DNA of 40,520 nucleotides from Paraglomus brasilianum (lineage: Eukaryota). Location: positions 1-40,520 of the forward strand of contig CAJVPI010000235.1 in the NCBI GenBank assembly GCA_910592345.1. The letters run 5' to 3'. The translations under genes were made by a program, and so were the position numbers. Positions 3,884 through 38,858 of the stretch are shown here, in pieces. Every line of letters starts with the position of its first letter. Within the stretch, counting starts at the first letter, position 1. Below the pieces are notes generated by a model. That model saw only the letters and a program-made list of their open reading frames with translations. It did not search any database and had not been told where the DNA came from.

Positions 3884-6321
3884 ATGAATCAAGAAAGTAA
3901 GGAACAGAATTGACCGCGTTTGTTGGATCATCACAAAAACTTTGTCTTTAAATGGTTATTGTGCATTTTTCCATATTCGACAGTAAAACGTGTATACATT
4001 GGCGGACTATCCAAGAATGTGAATGAGCAAGATATCGCTAATCGATTACGTCCATTTGGATCGATAAGTAATGTGAACATAATCTATCAACAGGAGACTG
4101 GTAACTATGTTAACTAATTGTACTGATTTTTATTAATATCTTATTGTTTTTCCCAATCTTTGTAACAATTCCTATCGTTAAAGGTGAAAGTCGCGGCTTT
4201 GCATATGCTACAGTAAAAACGACTCCAACTCTGTGGAAAAAATGTAATTGAACGGACAAGCAAGTTTGTATTCTGTTCAGATTATCTTGTAATTTCGAAA
4301 AAAAGATCATAACAATAAACTCAATTTCACATCAGGCGTGTCGACACTCAATGGTACAATTTGGAAGGGTATGAAATTACGGATAGAGGATGCCAAGCCC
4401 GATTACAAAAAACGGTATCTTTATCGAGAAAATATTATAGTTGGGGGAATCTGCATTGACGCTGTCATTTTATTTACCCGTTTGTTTACTAACTAAAGTT
4501 TGCAGGATCAACGGGAGCAGGAACATAAACCGGCCGAGCCTCAGGTATCAGGCACACACACATCAAAGAAGAGAAAGCAAGATACGGTTACTTTGGCAGA
4601 TGACATGAATTTGGTCACTGACAAGAACGCCGATGGACGTAAGGTTAGGACTCGAGCGTGAAAATGGGTTTACCGTCATTCATCTTGTCACCTGCGATCT
4701 AATATTATCATACCATTCAAGGGATGGAAAAAAGCACGATACGGAAGAGCAGTTGCTGTTATGCGGCTTCGCAAGGATGATGGAACAAAGGTGTTATGGG
4801 GGTGGTCACAATAATTCAATACGCGTGTGAAGATCCGTTATTTAGGTATCCGTTCTTACGTTTAGATCTCTTGTCTAGGTTGTGTTTAACCCGCAGCATT
4901 ATCAAAATAATCTCAAACGGTTTACCGAACGCGATTTGGAACTATTAGAACAGATGCCGTCTGACGCATTGTCGTCTGAATCGCGTGCAGTCAATAATAA
5001 GAGTGACGGTAAGCGAACAATAATCAAAGCATATTTTATGCCAACACTTTTAACCGCTGATAGGTCATACCAATTATGCAGAAGTCAAAGATAATTCAAC
5101 AATCAAAAATAACGTAATACAGAAGACTATATCTGCTATTCCTACTGTCACTCCCACTGTCACTCCCACTGTCACTCCTACGGCTACTGTTACTCCCGCT
5201 GCTGCGCCTGCTACTCCTACTGCCACTCCTACTGCCACTTCATCTGCCTCTGCGATTCCGCCAACGATAATAGATGGATTACAGAAATTGAAACTTATGA
5301 AGGAGAATAAAGACAACATGGCAAATCTAAAGATGGTCTCATCGCAATCACCATCAATAATAGACGGACTGAAACAATTGTCATTGGGTAAAGATAAAGA
5401 AAAAGATCAAAATACAAAGGCTAAGCAGGTAATGGAAACGGACGACCTTATCGCGAAGAATCTAGCCTCCACGCCTATGCCGGCTGTATCAAAAGACGTG
5501 CGGGCCGAGATAAATACGGATCTAAAGCAATTGTTTGGTCCGGCTGCGGTGAAACGTATGTTGGTCAAATATTTCTATTGATATTTATTTGTGTGGTTGT
5601 ATTGAGTGTCTTATTTACGATCTCGTTGTGTTATAATAGCTAGTTCTGGATTCTCACTATTCAGAAATGACGATGAAAGCTCAGAAGACGATGACGAGGA
5701 TGAGGATGGAGAAGAAGAGTATGAGAATATGGGTGAATCTACGGACCAGGATGATGATTCTGAAGATGAGAGTCCGATTAACGCGGTATCAAGTACCCAC
5801 AAACAACCGGTATGTGTACATTATGTTACGAGAAATCGCTCTTTTCAAGAGCAGCCGCGTTAATAATATTCTACTACTTGTGACAGCAGAACCCGAAAAA
5901 TAAAGCGATAGAAAGTCAGAGCATGATACCGGCAATGTCTGAATCGGCGCCGTTGTTCTTCTTTCATTTTGGAGACAAGTCACTGGAAAAGAGGTTGGTC
6001 AATTATGCCTAATACAGAAATTTTTGCCCTTTGTGATTCCAAGTCATTGAATTTTACTTCTTTGTCTAGATCCCATTACAGAGAGTCGAAGACATTTATG
6101 CGCACTGAATCCATGCAAGTATTACAAGCAAAAATTGTCATATTTCAGATGTACCTATACTAAAATTAGTCTTTGTGAACAGAGACGAAATAACAGCACA
6201 GTGGGAGGAATCACGGAAAGAATTGACAGCCGAGTTTAAGAGGAAACACAAGTCTGTGACAAAAAAGCTTTCTAAACTGAAGAAAAAAGGATGGTACACG
6301 GAAGGCAAGATACAGGATTAG
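3884..6321 (+). CDS. NOL8: Nucleolar RRM protein, NOL8/Nop8-like (multi-exon)
   Basis: Spliced reading MNQEIKRVYIGGLSKNVNEQDIANRLRPFGSISNVNII...GESRGFAYATV...CVSTLNGTIWKGMKLRIEDAKPDYKKR (RRM with RNP1/RNP2). It continues through an acidic tract and a C-terminal FMRTES...WEESRKELTAEFKRKHK; stop TAG at 6319-6321. Some internal exon borders are approximate. Confidence 0.75.
5141..5240 (+). repeat. Coding 12-nt tandem repeat (CCYACTGYCACT; PTVT/PTAT) inside the NOL8-like gene
   Basis: cctactgtcact cccactgtcact cccactgtcact cctacggctact ... cctactgccact cctactgccact. Confidence 0.85.
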
Positions 6322-16078: not shown

Positions 16079-18703
16079 CTATTCATCGGTGTTTTCCTTA
16101 CGCGGCTTTTTGATCGGTGTTGCTGGAGCCTTTCCAAAACATCCGCCAATTGCATTTTTATCCACAAGATTTTTTCTTTTTCGATATGTTCGAGAATGTG
16201 CAAGGGCAACATTATTTACATGCTCGCATATAGATTTGAGAGTCGCCTAAAATTAAATAATAAAATATATCTAACGAGAAACAGGATACCTTTAAAAGCA
16301 TAACTGTTATAGTTAAAGTACCTTGGTATCTAACATAGTTATTATGAACCTTTCTAAACATGGTAGTGTCGCTGTTGTGTTTGGGAGTATGGTTTGGCGG
16401 AGTCTCCCAAATCGCATTATATTTGTGGCCTTGCAGTCCATGCCGTACATCTCGTGGGTCCACCTTAGTCATACAAAATTAAACAAACTAAATAGTTAGA
16501 CACATGCTTGCAAACTCATCACCGCATTTATCACAATTGTACTTACCCCCATGACTGCATACCAATCACGTAAGTCTTGTGAAGCTCATCATCCGGCGCA
16601 TTCGAATTAGAGCGAAAAAACTGGAAGACGATATCACGAAGGGCCACCGCCAGATCCATGCGATCCATGAAGATCTTTTTTCTATGTGTTTCGGGAAGCC
16701 CGCCACTCCTAAGACCAATCAGAGCTTCGACGCTATTAATGCTATTTTTTAGTGTCCCTCGAAAGTCACATTTTTGCCCTACACGGGCACGGAGAACAAC
16801 AGACCGGCCAACGTTACGCCGTTGAGCTGAAGCCCAACAAGCAATTTCGCCGCTATAATCATAAAGGATTATAATGAATACGATAGAAATGGAACATCGA
16901 CTATGTTTGTACATACACGTCCATCTTGAGTTCCTTTAAGTCAAGGAGTTTCCTTATGAGCATGTTTGTAAACATATTATCGAACGACGCTTCAGAGACT
17001 GGAACATCAACACCACGTAAATTTTCGGCACTGCGGAGAAATGTGGTTATTAGCATGGGCAATGTAAAACAAAATTTAATTGAACAATTCCTATAACACT
17101 GCACATACTATGCCGTGATAGCGCGTCGAATAACAACTATATTTTCTCGGTCTTCAGAACTAAGCACAATATTGTATGTTTTTTCGATTGCCTTTGGAGA
17201 TATCTGCTCGATTGCTGTGACAATATCACTCGCTTGAGCCTTGACAACCTGAAAGTATGGGTCTGACATTAAGTTTGACTGCGATCTACTCTTATTAAGC
17301 AAATTATAATCTCCTACCTTCTCAAGCTCGTCAAAGAAGTATAGTGTGCCATCTGAGATTTCTGACTCTACTAGCTGAACTTCTTGTTCAAAGCTGCTCA
17401 ACATTTCTGTCCAATCCTCAGTTGAAAATAGGCACCTTATTGCAGAATTATCACCCGTGAGGTCCAGGATATTCCAGTATGCTGGACTGCAAACAATTTG
17501 CAATCAATAAATAACCATAAGAAATTATTGCAAGGATGCATGCAAATGATAATGAACAACTTACTCAAAACACTTCTGAGAATTTGGGATGGTCTTCACA
17601 TACTCTGCAAGGACAGAGCTGACATTTGTCCCACTTTGCAAGATCCACAGCCTTTGAGGGCTTGATTTTGGCTCATCTTCAACACGCTCTATGTATCCAT
17701 TATCAATGTGGTCACTGACTTTGTCATAATCATTACTATATTCAATCTCATCAGCATTGAGTTTGCTATTATATTCAGTGCCACTGCTGCCAGTGTTGCC
17801 ACCTTCACGATCATGATCCAGGGAAGAAACACATTTAGTATCTGGTGTGTCTGATTGTTTGCTCAGAGATTTTGACATCTGGTTGACAAGTATGTCTCCT
17901 TGTTGGTCAGTTGCAGCATCAATTACTACCAATGCAGTGAGCTGTGCATTTGCCTGAACATCTGACTGTTGTGATAATAGGTTAGCATGAAACCGACTTT
18001 AGGTAGAAGTATCCATTATACCTGTTTTGCTTTAATTCTTTTGTTCTTTTCATAAGAGTTCCAAAATTCCGTGACGTCAAGCGTGGGTTTCTTCGACAGA
18101 ATAAAAGTGAATTAATAACATTATTAAAAACTTTTTTGGTGTGTTGCTTGGTGCAGTTCGCCGGAGCTCACTATCTTTTTTTTTGCACCAGGACGGCACC
18201 CATACTGAGTTGAGGGACGGTACCTCCCCTCAGCGGTGCAATAAGATGTATGAGCCCACAAAAATTATGCGAGGACGACACCCACACTCCTGTTAGGGAC
18301 GGAACCTCCCAGGAGTTGCATAGATTTTGCTGTCAACGATGCAGAGATTCACGTGTGCTGTACAGTGTATGGGTTTACAAACCTTTGAGATTAGATCTGA
18401 GGCAACTCTACGTCGTTCTTCGTCCACATCGTGCGCTTTGATATCTTTGAGGTAATTTAGGAAACGCTTTCGCCAAGTTGCTCTTAATACAGCGACCGAA
18501 GCGTTTAAATTGAAGTCACACCGCACGGCAGTTAAAAAACCATGATACGCCCATTCGTCGATAGGGGCCGTATCGAAGTACTGAGTAACTGAGGCTAAAC
18601 GCGATAATTCATACGTGTAAGACCGAGTTTATCGCGCGCTTTGAGAGGGACCAAACGTACCATGGTGATGCACCCTTTTATCGTTGATTTTACCCCGAGC
18701 CAT
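16079..18703 (-). CDS. Crinkler-type restriction-endonuclease-fold (PD-(D/E)xK-like) protein of the expanded Mucoromycota/Glomeromycota family, multi-exon
   Basis: Spliced in phase: MARGKINDKRVHHH|ASVTQYFDTAPIDEWAYHGFL...|KPTLDVTEFWNSYE...WILQSGTNVSSVL...PAYWNILDL...SEASF...GEIACWASAQRRN...RARVGQKCDF...EALIGLRSGG...KIFMDRMDLAVALRD...VIGMQSWG|WTHEMYGMD...TPIKKPRKENTDE*. The family call is from motif recognition only. Confidence 0.65.
18164..18329 (-). ncRNA. Putative intronic tandem structured RNA element (two covarying units)
   Basis: Two ~57-nt units (18184-18240, 18266-18322) have different but complementary stems and conserved loop/junction sequences. They sit in a 292-nt intron (18091-18382). 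Strand is taken from the host gene. Confidence 0.55.
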
Positions 18704-19489
18704 AGGCGAGACACAGTTAATATATTAGACACAGTAATATGACGTAGACAATAGAAGCAACCGTTCGCGTTATCTACAATTTTCGATCTGCGAAAGACTA
18801 GTCATCCCTCCTTTAAAACATGCAATTTTATTGGTTAATAAATCCGGTTAACGTTTATATTTAGTATTAGCCTTTCCTACGGGTTAAAATAACCTTTGAT
18901 TGAATTCTCTCATTACCTTTTAGCCAATAATAAGCTGATTTCCAAAACAGATTGGATCGATGACGGTGAGAACACACATAATAAATCACTCGCATTCCAT
19001 TTACCAGATAGCTATTTAATGTGTATAATAAATAGTTTTCACACTCTATTACATGCTTTGTACTCTTAAATAAAGTAAACTGAATATACTATACATACTG
19101 ACATAAGTTACATAATAAATAAAGGTGGTGCGCCAGCATATCGTTTTGATCTTGACCCGCAATCTGCCACGCGTCAGCGAATGACTGTCTCGATGACGGA
19201 CGAGTAATACAATTAGTAACACGAATAATATGAGCAACAACGCTAGTATGTCGTTTGAATTGCATAACAGACAGTAGGCTATGCAAATGGTCTAGCGGCC
19301 TTGCTGAGCATTACTTCTTATTATTTACCTTTGAACATGACATCAAGAGCTTTCTTATCCAAATTTTAGAATTATGACGACTACAAAAGCGAGTCACTTT
19401 TTCCCCTTGACAATTATGTTTGCCTCACCCAACAACAAAACGTCTTATCGCAACTCTAATGGCCCCTTTCTATACGCTATCTTCCATTT

Positions 19490-20600
19490 AATGCGATGTA
19501 AAAAATACAAAGAACATCTGGTCAAGGCCAAGTTAGAGAGAAACTCTGTTTATACCGGAAATGTATATACCGGAATCTCACGGACAGATTCTTGCGCACT
19601 GTTTGTTTCATATGAAAATTCTTTGTTTATACCGAAGTCTCTTATAAACTTTCCATATACGGGATCCGGAAGGACACAGAGAGCTATGCCAACCCGTTCG
19701 GTATAAACAGAGTTGACTGTATTACAACAAAAATACGAATTATCTTGTGACGGGAGGTAAAGCTGATTATTGTAGCATAGACGCTACTGCTCATTACAGT
19801 TATGATTGAGCACAAAATGTTCACGTTCTGTATTCCGATCAGCAGGTAAGTAAGATTTATTATCTCAGTCCGCGCAAAGTACATTTATTTGGTATTCAAA
19901 ATAATGCAGTACGCGAACAAATTAATTACGTTCTCGATGAAGACGAAATTATCGGCAAAGGCACTGAGCATATTTGATGGAATTAAGAGACTGAATAAAG
20001 GTGAAAAATATTTAAAGATTACTTGTGATAATGCAGGAGATCAGAATAAAAATAATGCTACCATTTAATTTTATCTGTATTTAGAATTACAAAAGTATTG
20101 AATTGAATTTTATTTTTGGATTAATTAAAAAACTCTATAGAAAAACAGTGGTAGATTGTGTGAATCATATTGTTGAAGTTGTGAAAAAATTGAGCACTGC
20201 TGGATTAAACAAAGCCCAGTGTTATGACAATGGGAAAGGCTTCCAATACTTAGATCTTACTTCTGTGTTGGGAATTTTCTTCAATATCAATAAATTAAAT
20301 GGTTTGCAAAAATATCAGCATTTTCTTTTTGAAGCAGCTAACCCTGGAGTTGTCAAAGTCCAACTGGTTGCTAATGGCACTTATACAGAATATAATTTAT
20401 TGAAAACCAGAAAAGTAAGTGTTTCTGAAATTACCAAAGAAATCAAATTCTTTTCCATTCTAGTACTAATACTAATCCCACCTCCTTTGGATTACAAAAG
20501 GCAAAAATACCTTTATCATAATATTCGTCCATTTGTTAGACAATTCAAATATATTACTTGTCCACGACAAATTTATACTGGAATGAATAAATTCTCTCCA
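19490..20600 (+). mobile_element. Decayed DDE transposase, Sola-like (DNxxxQNKN type), pseudogenised
   Basis: YKEHLVKAKLER/[MITE]/YYNKNT...HYSYD*AQNVHVLYSDQQVSKIYYLSPRKVHLFGIQ...QINYVLDEDEIIGKG...KITCDNAGDQNKNNATI*F...FGLIKKLYRKT...LQKYQHFLF, with stops and deletions. Confidence 0.75.
19542..19721. mobile_element. pogo/Tc1-mariner-like MITE inserted in the transposase relic
   Basis: 16-bp inverted repeat AACTCTGTTTATACCG (19542-19557) / CGGTATAAACAGAGTT (19699-19714). The right end is GACTG-TA; internal TATACCG(G)A repeats; the outer left end is eroded. Confidence 0.7.
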
Positions 20601-22842
20601 TTACTTCATCACTGTCATTAAGTTCTCCATCTAATTTTTCAATGAATTTCGCTAGCTTTTCCTGCTTTTAATTTTAAAGCTTAAAATAATTATATACTGT
20701 ACTTCATATACCTCATAAAAAAATAAGTATATAAACAGAATAAAAGAAAAGCATGGTAAACATAATAATAATATCAGTGCTCGAACAGAGAAATAAAAAA
20801 TTTTTAGAAGAAAACGAAACAATTAGCAGATAAAAAGAGAACTTTAAATAAAAGCGGCTCACTGCCTTACTGAAAACTTAGAATATACTGGTACTGCTTA
20901 GAAAGGTTGATAATTGTTGAGTAATCGTTCAAGAAAAAGACGGAGTTAAGTACTCCGGAAATATTGTTAAAAGTTTTGCTAAGGAAGCATAAAATTATGA
21001 AAAATTTTTTAGTTTTACTTACTGAGAAAAAAAGAATTAGAAGCAAGGATAGAAGAGTTAGAGGATAAAGTTGGAGCAAGAAAAGGCTGAAAAGGTACTG
21101 AATGCAGCTATGAGGTTGTCAACGCCGGAAGACCACACGAACGCTCTCTCACGTGTGGCGATCCGACAAGGTGAAGAAAGTGCCAAATGTCTGAAGCACA
21201 ATGCTGCAATGGGTAAACTTATAGATCGAATAAGTGATTGAAAAATAGTTTGTTAAATAAAGATCAAGAAATAAGCAGAAGAGATTATTTAGCAACCAAA
21301 GAATCACCAGTTTTACCTAAAAAATTAGCAAGTAAAGCCAAAGAAAGCTAAGGAGAAATCCGAAATTTTATTATTCAAAAGAATAAGTAAATCATATGAG
21401 ATTAGAATATAGAATTCTGGGATAGTAAGCATCGAAAGGAACATTTACTAACACAGTGATTGATAAACCAATACCCACAGGAGTCATGCAATGAATTTCT
21501 TTGCATTAATGTCCATAGTAATAGTTGGCATTAGAGCAATGCATAGTATCAATGGATCCATCACTGGTGTTCAAGAAAAATGGCACCAGGAATCATCATC
21601 CATGGTCTAGCAACTAATATAATAATAAAGCTTGGACAACAACATCTTGCGTTATAAACTTGATTAATTAAAACCCCCCCTCTTTGGTGGGTAGAAAAAA
21701 AAATTAATTATTCTTTTAAAACATTATTGGTTAGATACAGAGCGCCTGCGCTAGTGATACCACAAAAATTATTGGGGAACTAGAAAAACTAATATGGCAA
21801 ATTGGGGTACAATGGAATTTCTCTAAATCAAATGCGTTCCAGCAATTTTCAGCGAAATGCGTACTGGAAAGACCCCGAGTCGGGTTCCGTCACTTGTCTC
21901 AAACCAATTAAACAATTTTCGGTTCAATAAATAATTATTGGCTCTCGTTCCTCAATTATAATTAAGAGTAATAGATCAACGGATAATTTATACAGCTTAA
22001 TTGAGCTGTTTTTGCAACTTGAGTGAGCCGTTTATTAATATCTGGTCAAATAAATAATATTTCAACAATGAAAGAAAGTAAAGTTTCGATTTCAAAGGGA
22101 ATCGTTTATTTGATTATTATTCCATGGAGTGGGAATTATTGTTCTAATACTAATAACCCGAACAATAATTTACAACATGAACAATATTTACCACATATAC
22201 AACATTAACAACATGAGAATATAAGGGCCGCTTATATAACTAGCGATTACCAAAAATTGAAACAAAAGGTATCAGCACAGAAAATTTCCAAGAACCAATA
22301 GATTCTAAGTTACTAGTGGCGCTACTGACGCTCAAAATATGTAACATACTAATACTAATACCTGCATTTGCATATGTATTCGTTGGTAGATGATAAACGA
22401 GATCTGCTATCCTCCTTTTGACCTCTTCAATTTCAATTTATGACGAAGTCTATCGAACAGGTAACCAGGTAGTATGTAGCACAAACTTCCGCTTATATAA
22501 TTTAGATCACATCTGTACATTATTATTATGTGAAGTAAAGTGATAATATTTGGGTAAAAACCGTTACCAATTCTCTTATCCGAATTTTACAGTATTAGTA
22601 TATACAGGGACTCGCAGTCGCAGAAAATAGATCTACTAAGTCCCATGCTCGGGACCGCTCAAAAGAGGTTCGACTGTATTATTATGTGACATCATGATAA
22701 GAACGTGTGCTATGAACGCCCAATCATAGTTAATCAAGTTTGGTTTGAGAATACATGACGTGATTGATTAACAAAGTTAACATCGAAATACCACCAATAA
22801 TTACTCGAGTTGTGTGATCCGCTAGCGACCGCTTCTCACATA

Positions 22843-25669: not shown

Positions 25670-28600
25670 CTATATTATTTTGTATTTTCCAGCAAGAGTC
25701 AAATAAGTTGGAATTATTTCCTTTCCGACTAATAGCCGAGTCATCGAATATAGCAGGATAATAAATAGAACAAATAGTGAACTAATGCAGAAATGACTTA
25801 TCGAAGTGCCAATCTCTAACCAACTCCCATCATCTCTAACTAAATAAAAGAAATTTAACGTCATCACATCCGAAGTCGATATCACCAGCAAACATAAACT
25901 AAATGAAGGTAAGCCCAATGCTTTGTTGATGATGTAGACCGCAGATGTGACAATAAAGAATGGAATCAATAGCTTAAGTAGCAACAATGCACCCATGAGA
26001 AATGGGTCAAACACTGTTGTCAATCTATATACACTCTGTAAAGAAAAGCTACTCAAACTAGCTACATTACCAGTGCCAAAGAATGCTACCAGCATGAAAA
26101 AGAGAAACATTAACGAAATGCGAAGATCTTCCAGTGTCAATGTTCTCTCTTTTCGTAATTCCCATGTTGGTTGTCGCTCCAGATGCAGATGTCGTTCCAA
26201 GGCAAGCCATATCCAAAGAGTTATTGAGAATATACAATAGAAGAGTACTTCGTATGAGATGCTCAATATTACAAACAACGGAGCGAACGACAAGTATATC
26301 GATATGAGACGATATGCGTAATGTTTAGGGTTAGTTCGTTCGTGAACAAATGGTGTAAGTATCGATATCACTAAAGAAATGATGTTTATAGTAGAGTGTC
26401 AGATGGGATACACACTTGGTTTGAATCCATGACAAAATTTCTTCTTGATAGTTTTAAAACTCACCTAGGATAGCCCAGCCGAGATACTTGTTCAAAGTAG
26501 GCAATCCGGTCTTTGCACGTAAACTGCTGGCGGTACCATACACAGTTATCATACTCAGTATAACCAGTATTAGCTATTATGCGGACAGTAGTCATCGAAT
26601 ATGTTAAAGTTTGAGCAAGGAACAATATTTCCAATTAATTTAAAAAAAGCATCTGAAGGAACATTACTAACCTGAAAGAGAAAAGTCATGCCAATAACAT
26701 TTGCGTCTCCTTGCGTTGCCAGACTATGCTTCTGATAATATGCATAGAGGCCAGTTATCATGATAAACAATCCACCAATGAGTCTATGAAAATGTAGTAA
26801 GACGAATATCAGTAAAGGCTAATATTATCGTTGAGATCAAGTGTGTTCATACACAATACTCACACCAATGTTATGTCTTCTCCTTTCTCAACAGGTAGCA
26901 GCGTGAATACACTACAACACAGGCAGCATAAAACCCATTGGAAAATCCTCTCAGGAACTTCGGTCCACAATGATTTCGGCATTGCCAATGGCCATATGGC
27001 AGCGAGTAAGAAACAAATGTTCAAGACGCTCCGATAGAAGTAAGCAAGAACCTATCGTACAACAATTGAAGAGGTGAATTTTATTATTTTATTTTATTTT
27101 TTTAAAAAAAGAATAAACAGATACCTCCTTACCAGCATTTGCAAAATCGCTAAATATCCGATAATACATCCAACAATAATCACAGGACTACGTTTTTCAA
27201 TCGCCAGCTTCCAAACATCAAAAAAAGTTCTACGATCCTTTAAGACTTTGTTCCAAAAGAATATTGGAAATACAACATATGCATAATACGTCGCGGGCAT
27301 TTCTTGTATATATATTATAGAGAAGAGCAGGAAGAATGCAACACTCGAAACAATGTTTATCTAGTAGTCAGCAATTGGTTAGTCGATTTGCATATTGTAA
27401 TTTTATAATAAATCACATACAGGCAGACCAGCTGTCAATATACTTACAAGATTTTCATATTGATCCTTTTTAGCGTGTGAGATGCAGAGTACGTATTCTC
27501 TGAATACAAAACTTAAACTGTACATTATCCATCCGATATATCCAGCATTGACAATTGATCTTAGGAAAAGCCAATCGTACCTATAAAAACAAAAAGCTTA
27601 AATTAGATGGGTATATTAAAGCGTTAAGAACATGATGGTCGATATTCATATTCCACATTGATGTATGTCTTACGTTTGTAAATATCGCAGTCCTTGTAGA
27701 GAGAGTTCAATCAGATCTAAGCACAACGCTTCCGCTTCTCCATATTCACCAATATCGATTAGTTCTTCGATGCGAGATATTAGTATTTCTGGTTTGTGAG
27801 TAGCATTATTCAAAGGCGCATACGGCTTAAACATTAGTTCTGTCTGTTTCTTGCGTGCTAGTAAATATGATACAAATTAGATTTCTGAATGATAGCTTGT
27901 TAAGGTAAGCGCGTCAAAGTCAAACATACCATTTTTGACATTATATTGTTCCAATATTTCCAACGCATTCACATAAATGCTCTTTGCTTTGAAATAGGGC
28001 GTGTTGTTTAGATATGCTAACGGTAACTCGCCTACAGAGTTAACAGGATAATTAATACCGATCAACGATGCCTAATGAGTTAAACAAGGTTAACTGTCAA
28101 CACGAAATTTTCTATAATTACCAAAAAAGGAAGAAAAAGAAAGAAAAAGAAAACAAAAGGAAAATAATTTCTGCAAACATACCATCAAAGGCGCAATGCC
28201 CGCTTGAAGAACATCGTTACGCTGAACAGAATTGAGACCCCATGGAGCAGAATAGTCATCGTGACCAGTCGGATGAGAGTAGTTTGGTTTATTGACGCCA
28301 GCTCCCCAGGAAATCAGAGGAGTGCGTGTATTATCAGGATGTCCATCGCCATGGTTACCTATAGAAAAGAATAATAAAGTCAGCTTTGATCAATCAAGGG
28401 TCAAAATACCCAAGGTCTTTCAACCATACATCATTTTTTACCTCTATTACTCATTCCATGGTCAGCCGTAAAGACATAAGCAGTCTTTTCGTCGTGTTCG
28501 TAAAACTCATCCATAAGATTTACAACTTTGCTAACTATATCGTCCACTACTTTGATATTATCCAGATATTCTTGAGAAGATGGGAGATGCGCATGACCAT

Positions 28601-29509
28601 TTGTATCCAGACCCAACAAGTGTAGAAAGAAGACTATACGGTCCTTATGCAATTGGGAGAAGAGAATATCATCGTATTTCGCACGATCAAACAATTTCGT
28701 AAACTTCTCAAGAACCCAAAGGTCTAATTCCACGGCATCTAATAAAGGTTAACGAGTCAGAACTTGCTGCAATGACTAGCATAGATACAAAAACAGCCAT
28801 TTGAAGTTCTGCTTACCTTCAGCAAAGTCTTCGCTCTCGGATGCATACATGAACGTGTCGACACGATTCGGATCTGATGCTCCCTCAGCAAACATAGGCA
28901 ATATATCTGGAGATCCGAATGACCATGTATGTTCACTCTGATTGAATACAGAGTCGAATTCAACTGGATTCATTTTCCATCCTAAACGAACGTTGTTTTT
29001 ATATTAGTCGATAAAATCTTTTTGATTTTGATTCGTTATAGACTAACCTTTTGTCACTGCACTAACGTCCTCGTAAAATCCTGCAATAAGAGCTACATGT
29101 CCCGGTCTTGATTCTGTAGGTACACGTGTATGAGATATGCCCCATGTTCCATGATTAAGTACAAGATCCCTTAGATATGGTGCGTTTGATTTCATCGTAG
29201 CGTCCCTTTGCGGATATAATTGAAACAATTTGTCTGCTCTCAATCCATCAGCTTGCGTAAATCAGACAGAATGACAGTATAATTAGCGCAATCACAAGAT
29301 TTTGTTATTCGTGGGACTGTTAAGCAATACGTACCAACAACTAGTACAAGCCTCTTAGCGGGTGGTGGTGGCTCTTCCACTCTATGGGGGGCCATCCCAT
29401 GCACTAAGGGTGATGTGAAATATATGTCGAATATACTCCATATATATACTACATGAAATAACGTTCCTATGAGTAATAGTATGTTCAACTTTGCGGTTAT
29501 AGCCGTCAT
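25670..29509 (-). CDS. MCD4: GPI ethanolamine phosphate transferase 1 (MCD4/PIG-N), multi-exon
   Basis: [116 protein letters not shown]. Confidence 0.95.
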
Positions 29510-29588
29510 CAGCTTGGAAGATGTTTGATCTTTGAACGGAATGTATGAATCGAAACGAAGAAATTGAACTTGGCATATTTAACCTGTT

Positions 29589-30322: not shown

Positions 30323-33300
30323 TTATCTTTGTTGAAATTGATTTATTCGCGTTTGTCGAGAGACATCCAAAGATTGTGTGTAACCCCATAATTCTGTTGT
30401 CAGCATTGTTTCGTTAAAGCTCAGGGTAACCAATCTATAGAACAGCATAGAATTCCATCAGCACAAAAAACGGATGGCAATATATACATGACGCGATTTC
30501 TTATCTTTGATATAATGTATTTTAAACGTCACCTTGCTAAGGTCATTCGGAAATTTAAATCATCTTGAGTCATCAATGCATTTCCCGACTTTGCCGCTTC
30601 TCGGCGTTGATTCACATAGTGATTTTGAATATGCTGTTAATGATACGATAGTAAAGTAAGTAGTTTGATTATATGTTCTTCATTTTAATTAAATTCGTAT
30701 CTTACACCGAATACGTCATTATAACTCACCAGTGAGACTTCCTCTGGTATATTGTAATCGGCATATCGCAATACGCTCAAGTACGACCTAAAACTATTAA
30801 TTAACTCTTCATTCAGTTGGTAAGACTGAGATTGATCTGTGGGAGACAAAGGAATGGTACAATCACACTGATAGTATAAGCAACAAAATGTCAGAATGTC
30901 AGTATGTCAGTGACGGAACATAATCGTAGCGTAAATATATACACCGAATACTCACCGGAAGTAATGACCTGGCATTCGACAGAACTATAACTCCAATGTC
31001 TGTTTCGTATTGAAAATTGTGAAACGGAAAGGCATAACCTAACTTTTGCTGAGTTAAAATTCCTTCAATAGCCTGAACATTGCGCACACCTAGAATCAAT
31101 CGTTCAAAAGCAATGTGTCACTGATGACTTTAATTATCATATCAGTGTCTTAAATATCCATTTGCATAACATCCCACATGATTACAGCTTCACAAAGACC
31201 CATTCATTTGCCTTACCACCTTCGTACTTACCACTTTCCCCAAGTTTTCCTTCCTGTAACACGGTCTCATCAATCAACAGCCGCGTCCCTTCAGCCACTT
31301 GCAATACACCACTCTCCAAAAAGCCATCATCAGCATCGAGATTTCGAGGATACATGAACACGTTATTCAGTATTTCCAAAGTCAAAGGAAGATCATGGTA
31401 AAGAGGAAGGAGGGAAGAAAGCAATGCGGAGACGGTTGAGGAGAAGTATGGTTTGTGGGTTAGAATGATTGGAGTAGATGAAGGAGAGTTTGAAGAGAGC
31501 TGAGTGTGCGATGACATCGGTGAGTTCGTCGCCGATGAGCTAATGTTAGTTATGTTTAAAGAAAATTTTCCAAGTATCAAACCACTTCTTCGAGAATGAC
31601 TGTTCAATAAGAATTCAGTTACATGTATTAGTGGATTATATTTCATAATAATTGATACAACTAAACTTTCGATCTAGTTGGTATCACCAAATTAAATGGG
31701 TTACTACTTACACTCTAGATAATAACTGGAGTAATAGAAATTCAGCAACCAACTCATCACCACAAAATACACTGGCAATATATCGAATTAATTCTCTTCG
31801 TATTTCGCGCGCGTTTTCCCTGACAATTCGTTCAACTAAGGAAAAAGGTTTTCGTCAAGTACTTCTTTCAGCAATTCATATGCGAAATCCATCCTTCTTG
31901 ATTGACACTTACTACTGGGATTACGCAACAATGGATTTCCACTTGGATGAATCTTACGGAAAAATATTGAATGGATGCATGGCACGGAAAGTAATGCTAG
32001 CGGGTCGACGAAGCCATCTCCGTCAGCATCGGCATTTGGAGGTGGTCTGTATGAAGATGGCGTGAGAGCAAATAATTGAGCAATATCAAAAATGAATGGA
32101 CAGAATTATGTAATACCTGTGTTCTTCAAGTACTCCGACGAATTCTACCACGTCAGTAACTTTTATTGACACATCTTTTTCGTAAATCTGCAGTCATATA
32201 TCGTGAGAGTCGACCGGATTACCGGCAAAATCAATTAATGCATCATGTGTTCGTCTCGACTGACCTTGACAACAACGCCAATATGCTTCTCATTGGGAAA
32301 TGGATATTTTGAATCGATGCGCTTTTTTCTTTTGTCAATGTCAGTATTGTTAATAGATAAAGAAGCTGTTTGCCATGTCAATCCTACAGTAATTAGACGT
32401 TTGTCATGAATTGAGTAAATTCAAACAATTAACTTCAATAAAGATACTGCCTAATATCACCTTCTATGGAATCTTGTGTGCCTGTGCCTTGGTGATATTC
32501 AGATCTGAAACCGTGCTATACACAATAACGTGCAGTTAAGAATAACGATCATCAAGAAGACACCTAATAGTAACCATCACTTCAATAGAAAAGGATATTT
32601 TTCTTGCCCATTCTGTCTCACCGGGTACGGAGGTAACGTAAAAGGAACATTTCTCGTCAAAATGGCTGTTCTGTTGTTCCAGGTTTGGGTCTAGTCTCTG
32701 TTCCTATACATAGTAGATGATAAATATACGTTAAACCAGAGCATTGACTAAAGGCAAAAGTGTAACAATTGATATCGGTTGACCACAAATATGAGAATGA
32801 CGTCGTCCTAATGGTATACATATTTCTTAACCTCCGCCCTGACAACCTGATTCTATCACTTGTGATAACTTACTTCATCGTTATAATCCTGGTACCGATG
32901 CAATTTCCAAGTCTGCAAAAGCAAATTACAAATACAAATCATTAACTAACACTTGACTATCGCGATCGCCTATTACTATTCTAACTTGTTTTTCACGCTT
33001 CAAGTATACGTGGCAATAACGGATAGATAGATCTCCACTAACACCTGATCACCATTCCGGTCGAGCGATTCATGTACAGGAGCATATAATTCAACGGCGA
33101 GAAAAGTATTTTGTATCATTCCTCTAAAGCGAACGAGAGTATTGGGCTGAATTTGGTCGACGGGAATATCATTTAGAGAAGGTATCTGTGGGATAAACAC
33201 GATGTAATTTGCCGCGAGAGTAAAGAAGGAGTTGAGAAAGGGAAAAGAGAGCAGCTGTTAAAATCTTATGCATTAACAATATTCCCTTGTTATAGATGGT

Positions 33301-36734: not shown

Positions 36735-37736
36735 AGGGAGTCGACAGATTTGGACGAATTGAATTGTAACAATATTTTATGTAACCCTTAATAATTTACG
36801 CATTAGTATTAGTATGCAATGTAATTTTTATAATAATGGAATCGATGTTTTTAACAGTTTCTTGTTTTGCAATTCCGTGGTTTATAGAAAACGTCGCTTG
36901 GCCGAGCAAAGCATGATGGCTTTAGTTCTCAATTTGTACATCTGAAACACGCTTGTTTCATGGCGTTTATCAATCTAAAATTACTACCGCGAGGTATTGC
37001 GCAATTGTGAAAATAAGGATAGCTCACATTACATAATTAGACAAACAAATCCATGGAATCAACCCGGTATTTGTTTATTAAAGATGACGATCCAACTGGT
37101 ATATACTATAGGATGTCTAGTAGTAAAGCTGGTTAAAAAGTCCCTCGCGATAGTAAAGCCGGTTATCGTGACGCTTTTACTCCTTCTTGCCAAGAAAATG
37201 GTCTAAACAGACGTTGCAGTAAACGATGCTTAGACTTGTAAAGCGACAATCTACGGCATTTAATTCTTTGTTATGCATATTATGATTAGCAGGGTATTCG
37301 CATGTGAATATCTGCATTCTTATCTCTAAATGAGACATTTTATAGCCATTATCGTTGCCTAACAAACAATGGGTTTACATCAGATATTAATATTAATGTC
37401 CACTAGTCTCATCCACAATCCAAAGCATGCATGCGGTTTGCAGAACAAGGTCTTGTTGCTAGATTGTCCATGGATTGTCAGTGTGACGTTGGTATTAACA
37501 CGTGGGTTTCAGATGAGTTATAATAACCATTTTAGCATTTACAACTGCACATCCAACTCTGACTTTAGCCTTTCGCCCCCCCAACAAATATTGTTTGTTG
37601 GGGCAAAGATGAATCCCTATAAGTACTAAATAAAAATATACATGCGTATTTACTATAGCATTATATAAACATCGCTTCTAAAGAGGGATTACTAGAATAC
37701 CTCGTCGTTCCATCCAAACAATACACAGGATCAACG

Positions 37737-38858
37737 ATGTCGCTTCAATCTCGAATCGATGCTTTGCTCGAGTCTTTCGGCCCTCCACCTCCTCCTCCGC
37801 GAGGCATACCCTTCCCTCAGCTCTACCCTATTGTGATGGACTGGCGATTTCCTCTTTCTGTTGCTGTTGCATATATTCTCTCCATTCTCGCTCTCAATCC
37901 AAAATCATCCGCTGTTTCACGTGTGGTAGCCAAATCAAAAGGATTAAACACAGCATACACAAGCAAGCAAAGTGGAAAACGAATGACTGCATTCGTTTTC
38001 GTACACAATGCATTCTTGTTTTTGTATTCTGGGATCACGTTTTATAATTCCTTTGGTGCGCTTTCCAAACGACATAGAACGGCCGAAAGCTGGACTGAGG
38101 CATTCTGCGATCACGGAAAGGTTTGCTGGAACGAAGCATTTGGCTATTGGGCATATTTGTTCTATCTTTCAAAATGTGAGTGTAGAGTACATTAAAGAGA
38201 AACGTACTGACATCACGCTTGTAATAACGAATGTCTACTTTGCCCATTTGTTGCATTCTCATTTATTTGTCCAGATTACGAGATAGTCGATACAATCATA
38301 ATCCTCGCTAAGGGTCGTCGTTCTTCCTTCCTTCAGTCATACCACCACGCGGGAGCCATAATCACAATGTGGATAGCTACAAAATATGCAACGCCTGCAG
38401 TTTGGATTTTCGTTCTATTCAACTCGTTTATCCACACAATCATGTACTTTTACTACGCACTCACCTCAGTTGGATTCTCTCCACCTGGGAAACAGTACTT
38501 GACAACGGCTCAGATTCTGCAATTCGCAGTTGGAAGTACGATTTCGTTTCTGTATTTTGTCATACCTGGATGTATGAGTGCTGGTCAAAGGTTCAGTGCG
38601 GTCGTGACCCTACTTTATATCGGTCCGTTGCTTTATCTGTTCTTTGATTTTGCACTTAGAACTTACGGAAAGGGTAAGAGATTCAGTAAAGCAGATGCCA
38701 AGACAGCTGTTAATGGAAAGGTTATGAGCAATGGCATGAGCAATGGCATGAGTAATGGCAAGAGCAATGGCATGAGTAATGGCAAGAGCAATGGCATGAG
38801 TAATGGCATGACTAATAGAAGAAGTATTTTTAATGCTAATCGTATGTTTAGTTGGTAA
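37737..38858 (+). CDS. GNS1/SUR4 (ELO) family fatty acid elongase, QxxHH type, 2 exons
   Basis: FVFVHN...YLFYLSK|YYEIVDTIII...SSFLQSYHHAG...FNSFIHTIMYFYY...KQYLTTAQILQF; intron 38176-38274. Confidence 0.92.
38724..38816 (+). repeat. Coding 12-nt tandem repeat (SNGM/SNGK x7) in the elongase tail
   Basis: (AWGAGYAATGGC)n encoding MSNGMSNGMSNGKSNGMSNGKSNGMSNGMTN. Confidence 0.9.

Follow-up and report, generated by a model that had tools for sequence, protein, structure and literature searches.

An uncatalogued, structurally selected tandem RNA motif in an intron of a predicted Crinkler-like nuclease-fold gene of Paraglomus brasilianum

The second intron of a predicted restriction-endonuclease-fold gene of Paraglomus brasilianum contains a real, uncatalogued and structurally selected RNA motif, which consists of two tandem units, each predicted to form a three-way junction, and which is known essentially from one locus. 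The gene lies on the minus strand of the window, the whole stretch of 40,520 nt analysed here (contig CAJVPI010000235.1, positions 1 to 40,520). The element is most probably a new form of a familiar kind of system, the intronic cis-regulatory structure. The features concerned are as follows.

16079..18703, minus strand: host gene, with 10 predicted exons encoding about 570-590 aa (header, acidic linker and predicted PD-(D/E)XK-fold domain)
18383..18594, minus strand: exon 2, the α-helical header (5' end at 18594 in public model P0002 and at 18580 in the model built here)
18091..18382, minus strand: host intron 2, 292 nt, GT-AG, phase 0, with a splice joint in X8
18022..18090, minus strand: exon 3, 69 nt
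17966..18021, minus strand: intron 3, 56 nt, kept in contigs of both RNA-like runs
18260..18328, minus strand: unit A including its AU-rich outer stem, with the Sm-site-like AAUUUUUG in the 3' arm
18266..18322, minus strand: unit A core, a predicted three-way junction (P1 of 5 bp, P2 of 7 bp, GG/AA loop, 3-bp stem bearing loop 1, and loop 2 on a short P3)
18297..18306, minus strand: loop motif A1, GG-UUCCGU-CC
18273..18282, minus strand: loop motif A2, GG-UGUCGU-CC
18164..18257, minus strand: unit B including its long outer stem (folding z -3.67; 0 of 200 shuffles fold equally well)
18184..18240, minus strand: unit B core, of the same predicted 57-nt geometry (P1 of 6 bp, P2 of 6 bp, GG/AA loop, 4-bp stem bearing loop 1, and loop 2 on a short P3)
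18215..18224, minus strand: loop motif B1, GG-UACCGU-CC
18191..18200, minus strand: loop motif B2, GG-UGCCGU-CC

Two tandem units in an oversized intron

Intron 2 (46% GC) is 3.5-5.2 times longer than the eight other predicted introns of the gene, which measure 56-83 nt, as had been claimed in an earlier note on this DNA. It lies where the N-terminal header exon meets the remainder of the gene. The start of the gene is placed at 18663 in the model built here and at 18703 in the public model, and the translation of the queried exon is identical to the public P. brasilianum protein P0002. The public model additionally places a 39-aa exon inside the RNA element; this exon finds no support in the X8 splice joint, which runs across intron 2.

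Both units were found on the minus (sense) strand as first quoted, and the outer stems reported with them are also present: in unit A, AAAAU (18328-18324) faces AUUUU (from 18265), and in unit B, GGGCUCA (18257-18251) faces UGAGCUC (18170-18164). The two cores form a gapless alignment of 57 columns, 20 of which differ. Despite these differences all 17 base pairs common to A and B are intact, six of them via double changes and one via a change from A-U to G-U, and the description of stems that differ in sequence and yet keep their pairing is therefore correct. When 20 substitutions were placed at random, all 17 pairs survived in 1 of 300,000 trials for each unit, and when the changed columns were fixed and only the letters randomised they survived in 768 of 300,000, values that are optimistic because the structure was derived from the same two sequences. 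Sliding the pairing partners by 1-3 columns reduced pairing from 97% to 36-50%. The pair-preserving changes thus support structural selection rather than simple duplication, as originally proposed. The double changes are confined to P1 and P2, and covariation support is limited to these helices because the short loop-closing stems never vary. Just three differences between A and B fall in loop or junction columns. The GG/AA internal loop, which had been described as conserved, is indeed present in both units, but its position is offset by one pair between them.

The sequence GGTNYCGTCC was observed four times in the window, always within intron 2, against an expectation of 0.10, and none of 100 shuffles reached four copies; this agrees with the four GG-UNYCGU-CC loops reported earlier. 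Among themselves the four loops can form at most 2 bp. A fourfold loop with so little mutual pairing fits repeated docking sites better than it fits one catalytic or ligand pocket. It is highly improbable that the stems merely shorten the effective length of the intron for splicing and that the loops are functionless: the two hairpins do enclose ~160 of the 292 nt, in a gene with otherwise short introns, but the four conserved 10-nt motifs and the equal 57-nt geometry would be left unexplained.

The folding energy of the cores is moderately unusual (z -1.6 to -2.0), and that of extended unit B reaches a z of -3.7. In the pre-mRNA context, ViennaRNA assigns P1 and P2 of unit B probabilities of 0.87-0.96; for unit A the corresponding values are ~0.05 for P1 and P3 and ~0.5 for P2. 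The presence of G-U pairs and the lower RNA energies favour the sense strand, and a function as a single-stranded DNA hairpin is disfavoured (DNA folding z -0.9 to -1.9). The Sm-like AAUUUUUG is without a counterpart in unit B and is read as part of the AU-rich stem.

Comparison with known RNA families

A search of both strands of the window against Rfam 15 returned no family at the gathering threshold, and a sub-threshold search (E up to 10) gave best E-values of 0.16-2.5 with nothing credible. The TPP UGAGA motif is absent from the element; there is no B box, and ARAGORN predicts no tRNA, which argues against a tRNA or tRNA-derived SINE. UGUGG/UAUGG at the junction is reminiscent of the SRP Alu domain, but the loops pair by no more than 2 bp and Rfam gives no SRP match. 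The absence of Rfam matches and the failure of the snoRNA, ribozyme, TPP, SRP and tRNA motif checks bear out the first impression that the element falls in no known family. Moreover, literature searches listed no paper on a comparable element; of two fungal RNA-motif screens, PMC5640933 describes different motifs in the sections consulted, and in PMC8216456 the terms 'three-way', 'tandem', 'Mucoromycota' and 'Glomero' occur 0 times.

The units could be an independent small non-coding RNA that merely resides in the intron and, like a snoRNA, is released from the lariat. The likeness is greatest to SNORA74 (U19), which is intronic and has two long hairpins, and to the 3' hairpin of which unit B aligns weakly (E 0.16); this best snoRNA match, however, scores 12.5 bits against a gathering threshold of 71, and the element is without an H box in the hinge, an ACA after the second hairpin or a bipartite guide pocket. 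The C box (RUGAUGA) is absent and a lone CUGA sits inside P2 of unit B. Likewise, there is no H box (ANANNA) in the hinge (intron nt 123-125), and the next ACA lies ~20 nt past the outer stem. In favour of an independent RNA, one 202-nt contig of X7 (18146-18345) covers just the structured part of intron 2, but this is a single record with a depth of 2.1, and contigs cannot show RNA ends. Overall, an independent RNA is unlikely.

Tandem glycine riboswitches consist of two three-way junctions in tandem, and fungal TPP riboswitches sit in introns. The element, as two diverged tandem three-way junctions in a fungal intron, recalls both, and the units might accordingly be tandem small-molecule aptamers that control splicing, which would constitute a new eukaryotic riboswitch class. 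Two perfect complements of unit B, of 8 nt at intron +9..+16 and of 7 nt just downstream, would suit such a switch. The 5' flank is able to invade unit A with a gain of 1.3 kcal/mol, but 38 of 60 shuffled flanks do equally well, and neither of the near-equal folds of unit A leaves the donor site unpaired. The 8-nt complement was therefore rejected as a switch, since the competing fold is not special and the donor is neither freed nor hidden; in addition, the stems of unit B stay formed at the high probabilities given above. No riboswitch family is matched, no expression platform was found, and the host is a non-metabolic gene. The riboswitch-like splicing switch suggested in the earlier note is thus unsupported so far, and the aptamer explanation is improbable.

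A further likeness is to riboswitches of the guanidine-II type (mini-ykkC) and their kissing loops: the element is also composed of repeated hairpins with near-identical, paired CG-containing loops, and all four loops read ACGR at their start in the antisense direction. They differ from ACGR tetraloops in being 6-7 nt long (sense UNYCGU(C), antisense ACGRNA), and the element sits in a eukaryotic intron, in a host unrelated to guanidine, without an Rfam match.

Because the loop-closing stems are without covariation support, the invariant core may adopt a different fold, such as one in which the two similar hairpins exchange strands. Indeed, invariant segments are able to pair crosswise in both units (columns 23-26/58-61 and 32-36/50-54). 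Each unit could on this basis be a self-cleaving ribozyme of an undescribed class, with a pseudoknot as its core instead of two hairpins, and the loops resemble HDV L3 in sequence. The hammerhead core (CUGAnGA and GAAA) is absent from the element and no Rfam ribozyme is matched. A loose HDV-type descriptor gave five sense hits, all in unit A with mismatched helices and none in unit B, and 26 antisense hits, which is the background level. According to the sections of PMC5640933 available, HDV-like ribozymes are common in fungi; the element shares with them its small size, a short G-C stem and a pyrimidine-rich, CG-containing loop, but no consistent drawing of their nested double pseudoknot, with P1' directly after P3 and C..A in J4/2, is possible for A and B alike. 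A ribozyme is thus quite improbable.

Distribution of the element

The homologous intron is readable in 5 of 18 related metagenome loci (L021, L024, L025, L026 and L027), which represent three distinct genes. It is 57-85 nt long and motif-free in these genes, all of which carry other header types, and the two-unit covariance model found no match in any of the 18 loci. The element had been proposed as an autoregulatory binding site or an RNA partner of the host protein. As a general role within the gene family this is weakened: the element is absent from all three genes with other headers and present in one same-species duplicate. Family-wide feedback is excluded for the three other-header genes, though the nuclease-fold domain is well conserved there.

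This duplicate, P0069, is the only further copy found when the translated frame of the element was used as query. This 93-aa protein model is encoded on a different P. brasilianum contig, and the copy is inferred from a mis-called protein, hence only amino-acid-visible changes are recorded. P0069 shares exon 2 with three changes in 50 codons, and in the 17 codons that span most of its unit A no change is visible. The sequence implied for the next 25 codons has six substitutions, a lengthened A-run and a deletion of 8 nt at P3; amid this damage to unit B, loop B1 is altered and P1 is broken. The difference between the two stretches (0 of 17 codons against six and a deletion in 25) gives a Fisher p of 0.02-0.03 with a boundary that was chosen post hoc. 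Within 18453-18679, contigs of X5 and X6 lack 8 and 11 nt, and the similarity of X5 stops at 18679. The 8-nt loss in these soil-run contigs matches the start of P0069, and since X5/X6 contigs whose header region has suffered frameshifting losses match the duplicate, it is likely a pseudogene. The motif is thus known from one intact locus and one decaying duplicate. Other X5, X6 and X7 contigs carry units without substitution, at a divergence that is too low to count (9 in 1,818 nt over seven X5 records). The persistence of unit A beside decayed codons, together with the lack of the element from the homologous intron of other family members, speaks for the independent RNA discussed above; with unit B damaged and unit A without visible change, P0069 fits a host-independent RNA equally well.

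Alternatively, the units may be a fragment captured from a mobile, viral or viroid-like element, with a structure that was under selection in the past but is neutral in its present place. Approximately 200 GC-rich nt were gained in this lineage, since the intron position is ancestral and the intron is short elsewhere. The divergence of A from B (20/57) is far above that of the gene's alleles from the window, the duplicate has a decayed unit B, and Crinkler-type genes are tied to transposons according to PMC5289972. Against such an origin, no terminal repeats or target duplication are listed around the insert and, as weaker points among the matches listed, the depth of the soil runs X5/X6 at the element is at gene level (compared with 75 and 38 at 18782-18888) and these runs have no loose-ended contigs there. 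Furthermore, searches of viral contigs, prokaryote genomes, metagenomes, phages and plasmids, collections that hold little DNA of such fungi, yielded nothing credible. A mobile relic is distinctly unlikely.

Those searches gave the following. Pattern scans of viral contigs returned 7, 8 and 26 hits, and prokaryote genomes gave 8, which is chance level: the 49 loci score at most 18.9 bits with the two-unit model, as against 88-92 for the source units, and the best of them lies within an ORF. The strict consensus pattern had 0 hits in metagenome contigs, Paraglomus copies included; as even these copies were missed, metagenome coverage of such fungi is thin. No match to phages or plasmids was obtained with blastn, the two-unit model matched none of three prokaryote or virus records (too few to inform), and none of 55 candidates for the host family in viral contigs was confirmed. 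No dispersed extra copies lie elsewhere in the window. An 18-nt match between the 3' end of intron 2 and L030-L032, where it falls within coding sequence, was judged fortuitous, and P0070-P0073 are unrelated repeat proteins.

Host protein, splicing and a candidate function

The AlphaFold model of the host protein (mean pLDDT 67.7) matches restriction endonuclease structures, in line with the nuclease fold assigned earlier. Matches to type IIG and type I restriction enzymes have Z scores of 9.1, 7.8 and 7.1; they include BpuSI (Z 9.1, rmsd 3.6, 147 residues aligned) and DrdV (Z 7.8). The closest solved structures are two mitoribosome chains, 3j7y_5 (Z 10.7, rmsd 4.7, 208 residues aligned) and 7a5f_s3 (Z 10.6, rmsd 5.4, 213 residues aligned), which we take to be mL37 and mL65. 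Foldseek of the model against the PDB gave no match at E 0.001. Structure neighbours in the Atlas comprise PDDEXK_12 (TM 0.58, under the naming bar) and Crinkler-bearing clusters. As modelled, the host is a Crinkler-like restriction-endonuclease-fold protein. It shares with the Crinkler-related proteins, in the parts of PMC5289972 and PMC6131194 consulted, an exchangeable α-helical header, a PD-(D/E)XK-fold C-terminus and multiple copies in Glomeromycota. It differs from them in that a Pfam scan of four exons gave no hit, no LFLAK-type header was seen and the second acidic residue is replaced. In the alignment, from which the roles of these residues are assigned, one Asp is invariant, the second acidic catalytic position is Leu in 44 of 44 aligned proteins where the distant relative L030 has Glu, and the adjoining Arg is invariant, so that the complete acidic catalytic motif is lacking. 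Because Leu replaces Glu beside invariant Arg residues, the host protein is likely a catalytically dead, nucleic-acid-binding fold. The distant relative itself (L030 2520-4640, also L031 and L032) has 33% identity over 107 aa and an intact-looking catalytic motif, and is preceded by a tandem repeat of ~240 nt with 95% identity.

One search recovered 68 relatives of the host, the named ones being from Glomeromycota and Endogonales. The header type of P0002 is also found in P0004, P0013, P0028 and P0038, which fall in different C-terminal clades of a tree built from a quick, unfinished search. At the sequence level this suggests header exchange near the element-bearing intron, a process described for Crinklers in portions of PMC5289972. 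The P0038 model seems to read into the homologous intron, giving VLSCEKP, loosely like the VCKP read-through of the element intron, and there is a weak hint that same-header introns may share a 5' end.

RNA-derived contigs of X7 and X8, which show presence only and not splicing rates or RNA ends, confirm seven of the nine predicted introns; intron 1 is without a joint and intron 3 is kept. A contig of X8 skips exactly 18091-18382 at GT-AG, the intron 2 joint being found in X8 only. This contig, with intron 2 spliced, retains intron 3, as does the X7 contig, and an intron 3 joint occurs in no contig of X7 or X8, while introns 2 and 4-9 all have joints. Retention of intron 3 introduces an in-frame stop immediately past exon 3, and only the header would then be produced.

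The explanation ranked first, tentatively and at rather less than even confidence, is that the four G-C-closed UNYCGU loops of the two tandem junctions form a multivalent protein-binding site that throttles splicing at the 5' end of the gene. It is preferred because the stems vary and the fourfold loops are invariant, and because the competing fold of the 5' flank is not unusual. The three-way-junction fold would form in the pre-mRNA, with the variable stems as a scaffold and the invariant loops and GG/AA mismatch as the recognised surface, and an oligomeric protein could bind two loops per unit. Binding would favour the transcript that retains intron 3 and contains the stop, which would then be removed by nonsense-mediated decay. 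The likeliest binder would be the host protein, Arg-rich and with a probably inactive nuclease fold, and would exert feedback control; another candidate is an RNA-binding protein of general function, for instance eL22. It counts against this binding model that intron 2 itself is spliced in X8 and that the retained intron is its neighbour, intron 3.

A precedent is the S. cerevisiae RPL22B gene, for which the sections of PMC4838235 available describe binding of Rpl22p to a stem-loop in its own intron, which blocks splicing. The present element is comparable as an intronic structure proposed to bind a protein and to divert pre-mRNA to decay, but its host is not a ribosomal protein and it has two predicted three-way junctions with four loops. 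All four loops conform in a 6-nt register to the loose eL22 loop rule (G-C closure, 5-9 nt, 3' U), a rule too degenerate to serve as evidence.

It is doubtful, on the other hand, that the tandem junction is something more novel: either the dedicated RNA ligand of a disarmed Crinkler-type nuclease fold, which would travel with one exchangeable header exon as a protein-RNA feedback module akin to bacterial type III toxin-antitoxin systems, or the founding eukaryotic member of a new riboswitch or ribozyme class. At 57 nt, and with a covariation model built in, the unit is of a size that lends itself to probing, mutation and searches. Should the host protein bind the element, a large conserved family of nuclease folds of mycorrhizal fungi, likely inactive as enzymes, would gain a function, and it would become apparent how Crinkler-type genes are restrained; should the element sense a ligand or self-cleave, it would represent a new eukaryotic RNA class.

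Upstream of the gene, 18782-18888 and 19098-19178 are shared with other contigs at a depth of up to 75, with loose ends on both sides where the similarity stops, and are likely a small repeat. A 178-aa open frame at 20085-20621 (plus strand), without a Pfam hit, adjoins an AT-rich stretch and gives the impression, and only that, of a transposon remnant. The neighbours at 2396-2935, 25670-29578, 31182-33257 and 37659-38858 are ordinary fungal genes for an ML-domain protein, PIG-N, an MCM-binding protein and a fatty-acid elongase, respectively. Coding tandem repeats are present at 38683-38826 (12-nt, SNGM-type) and 5133-5243 (6/12-nt, PT/PA-rich).
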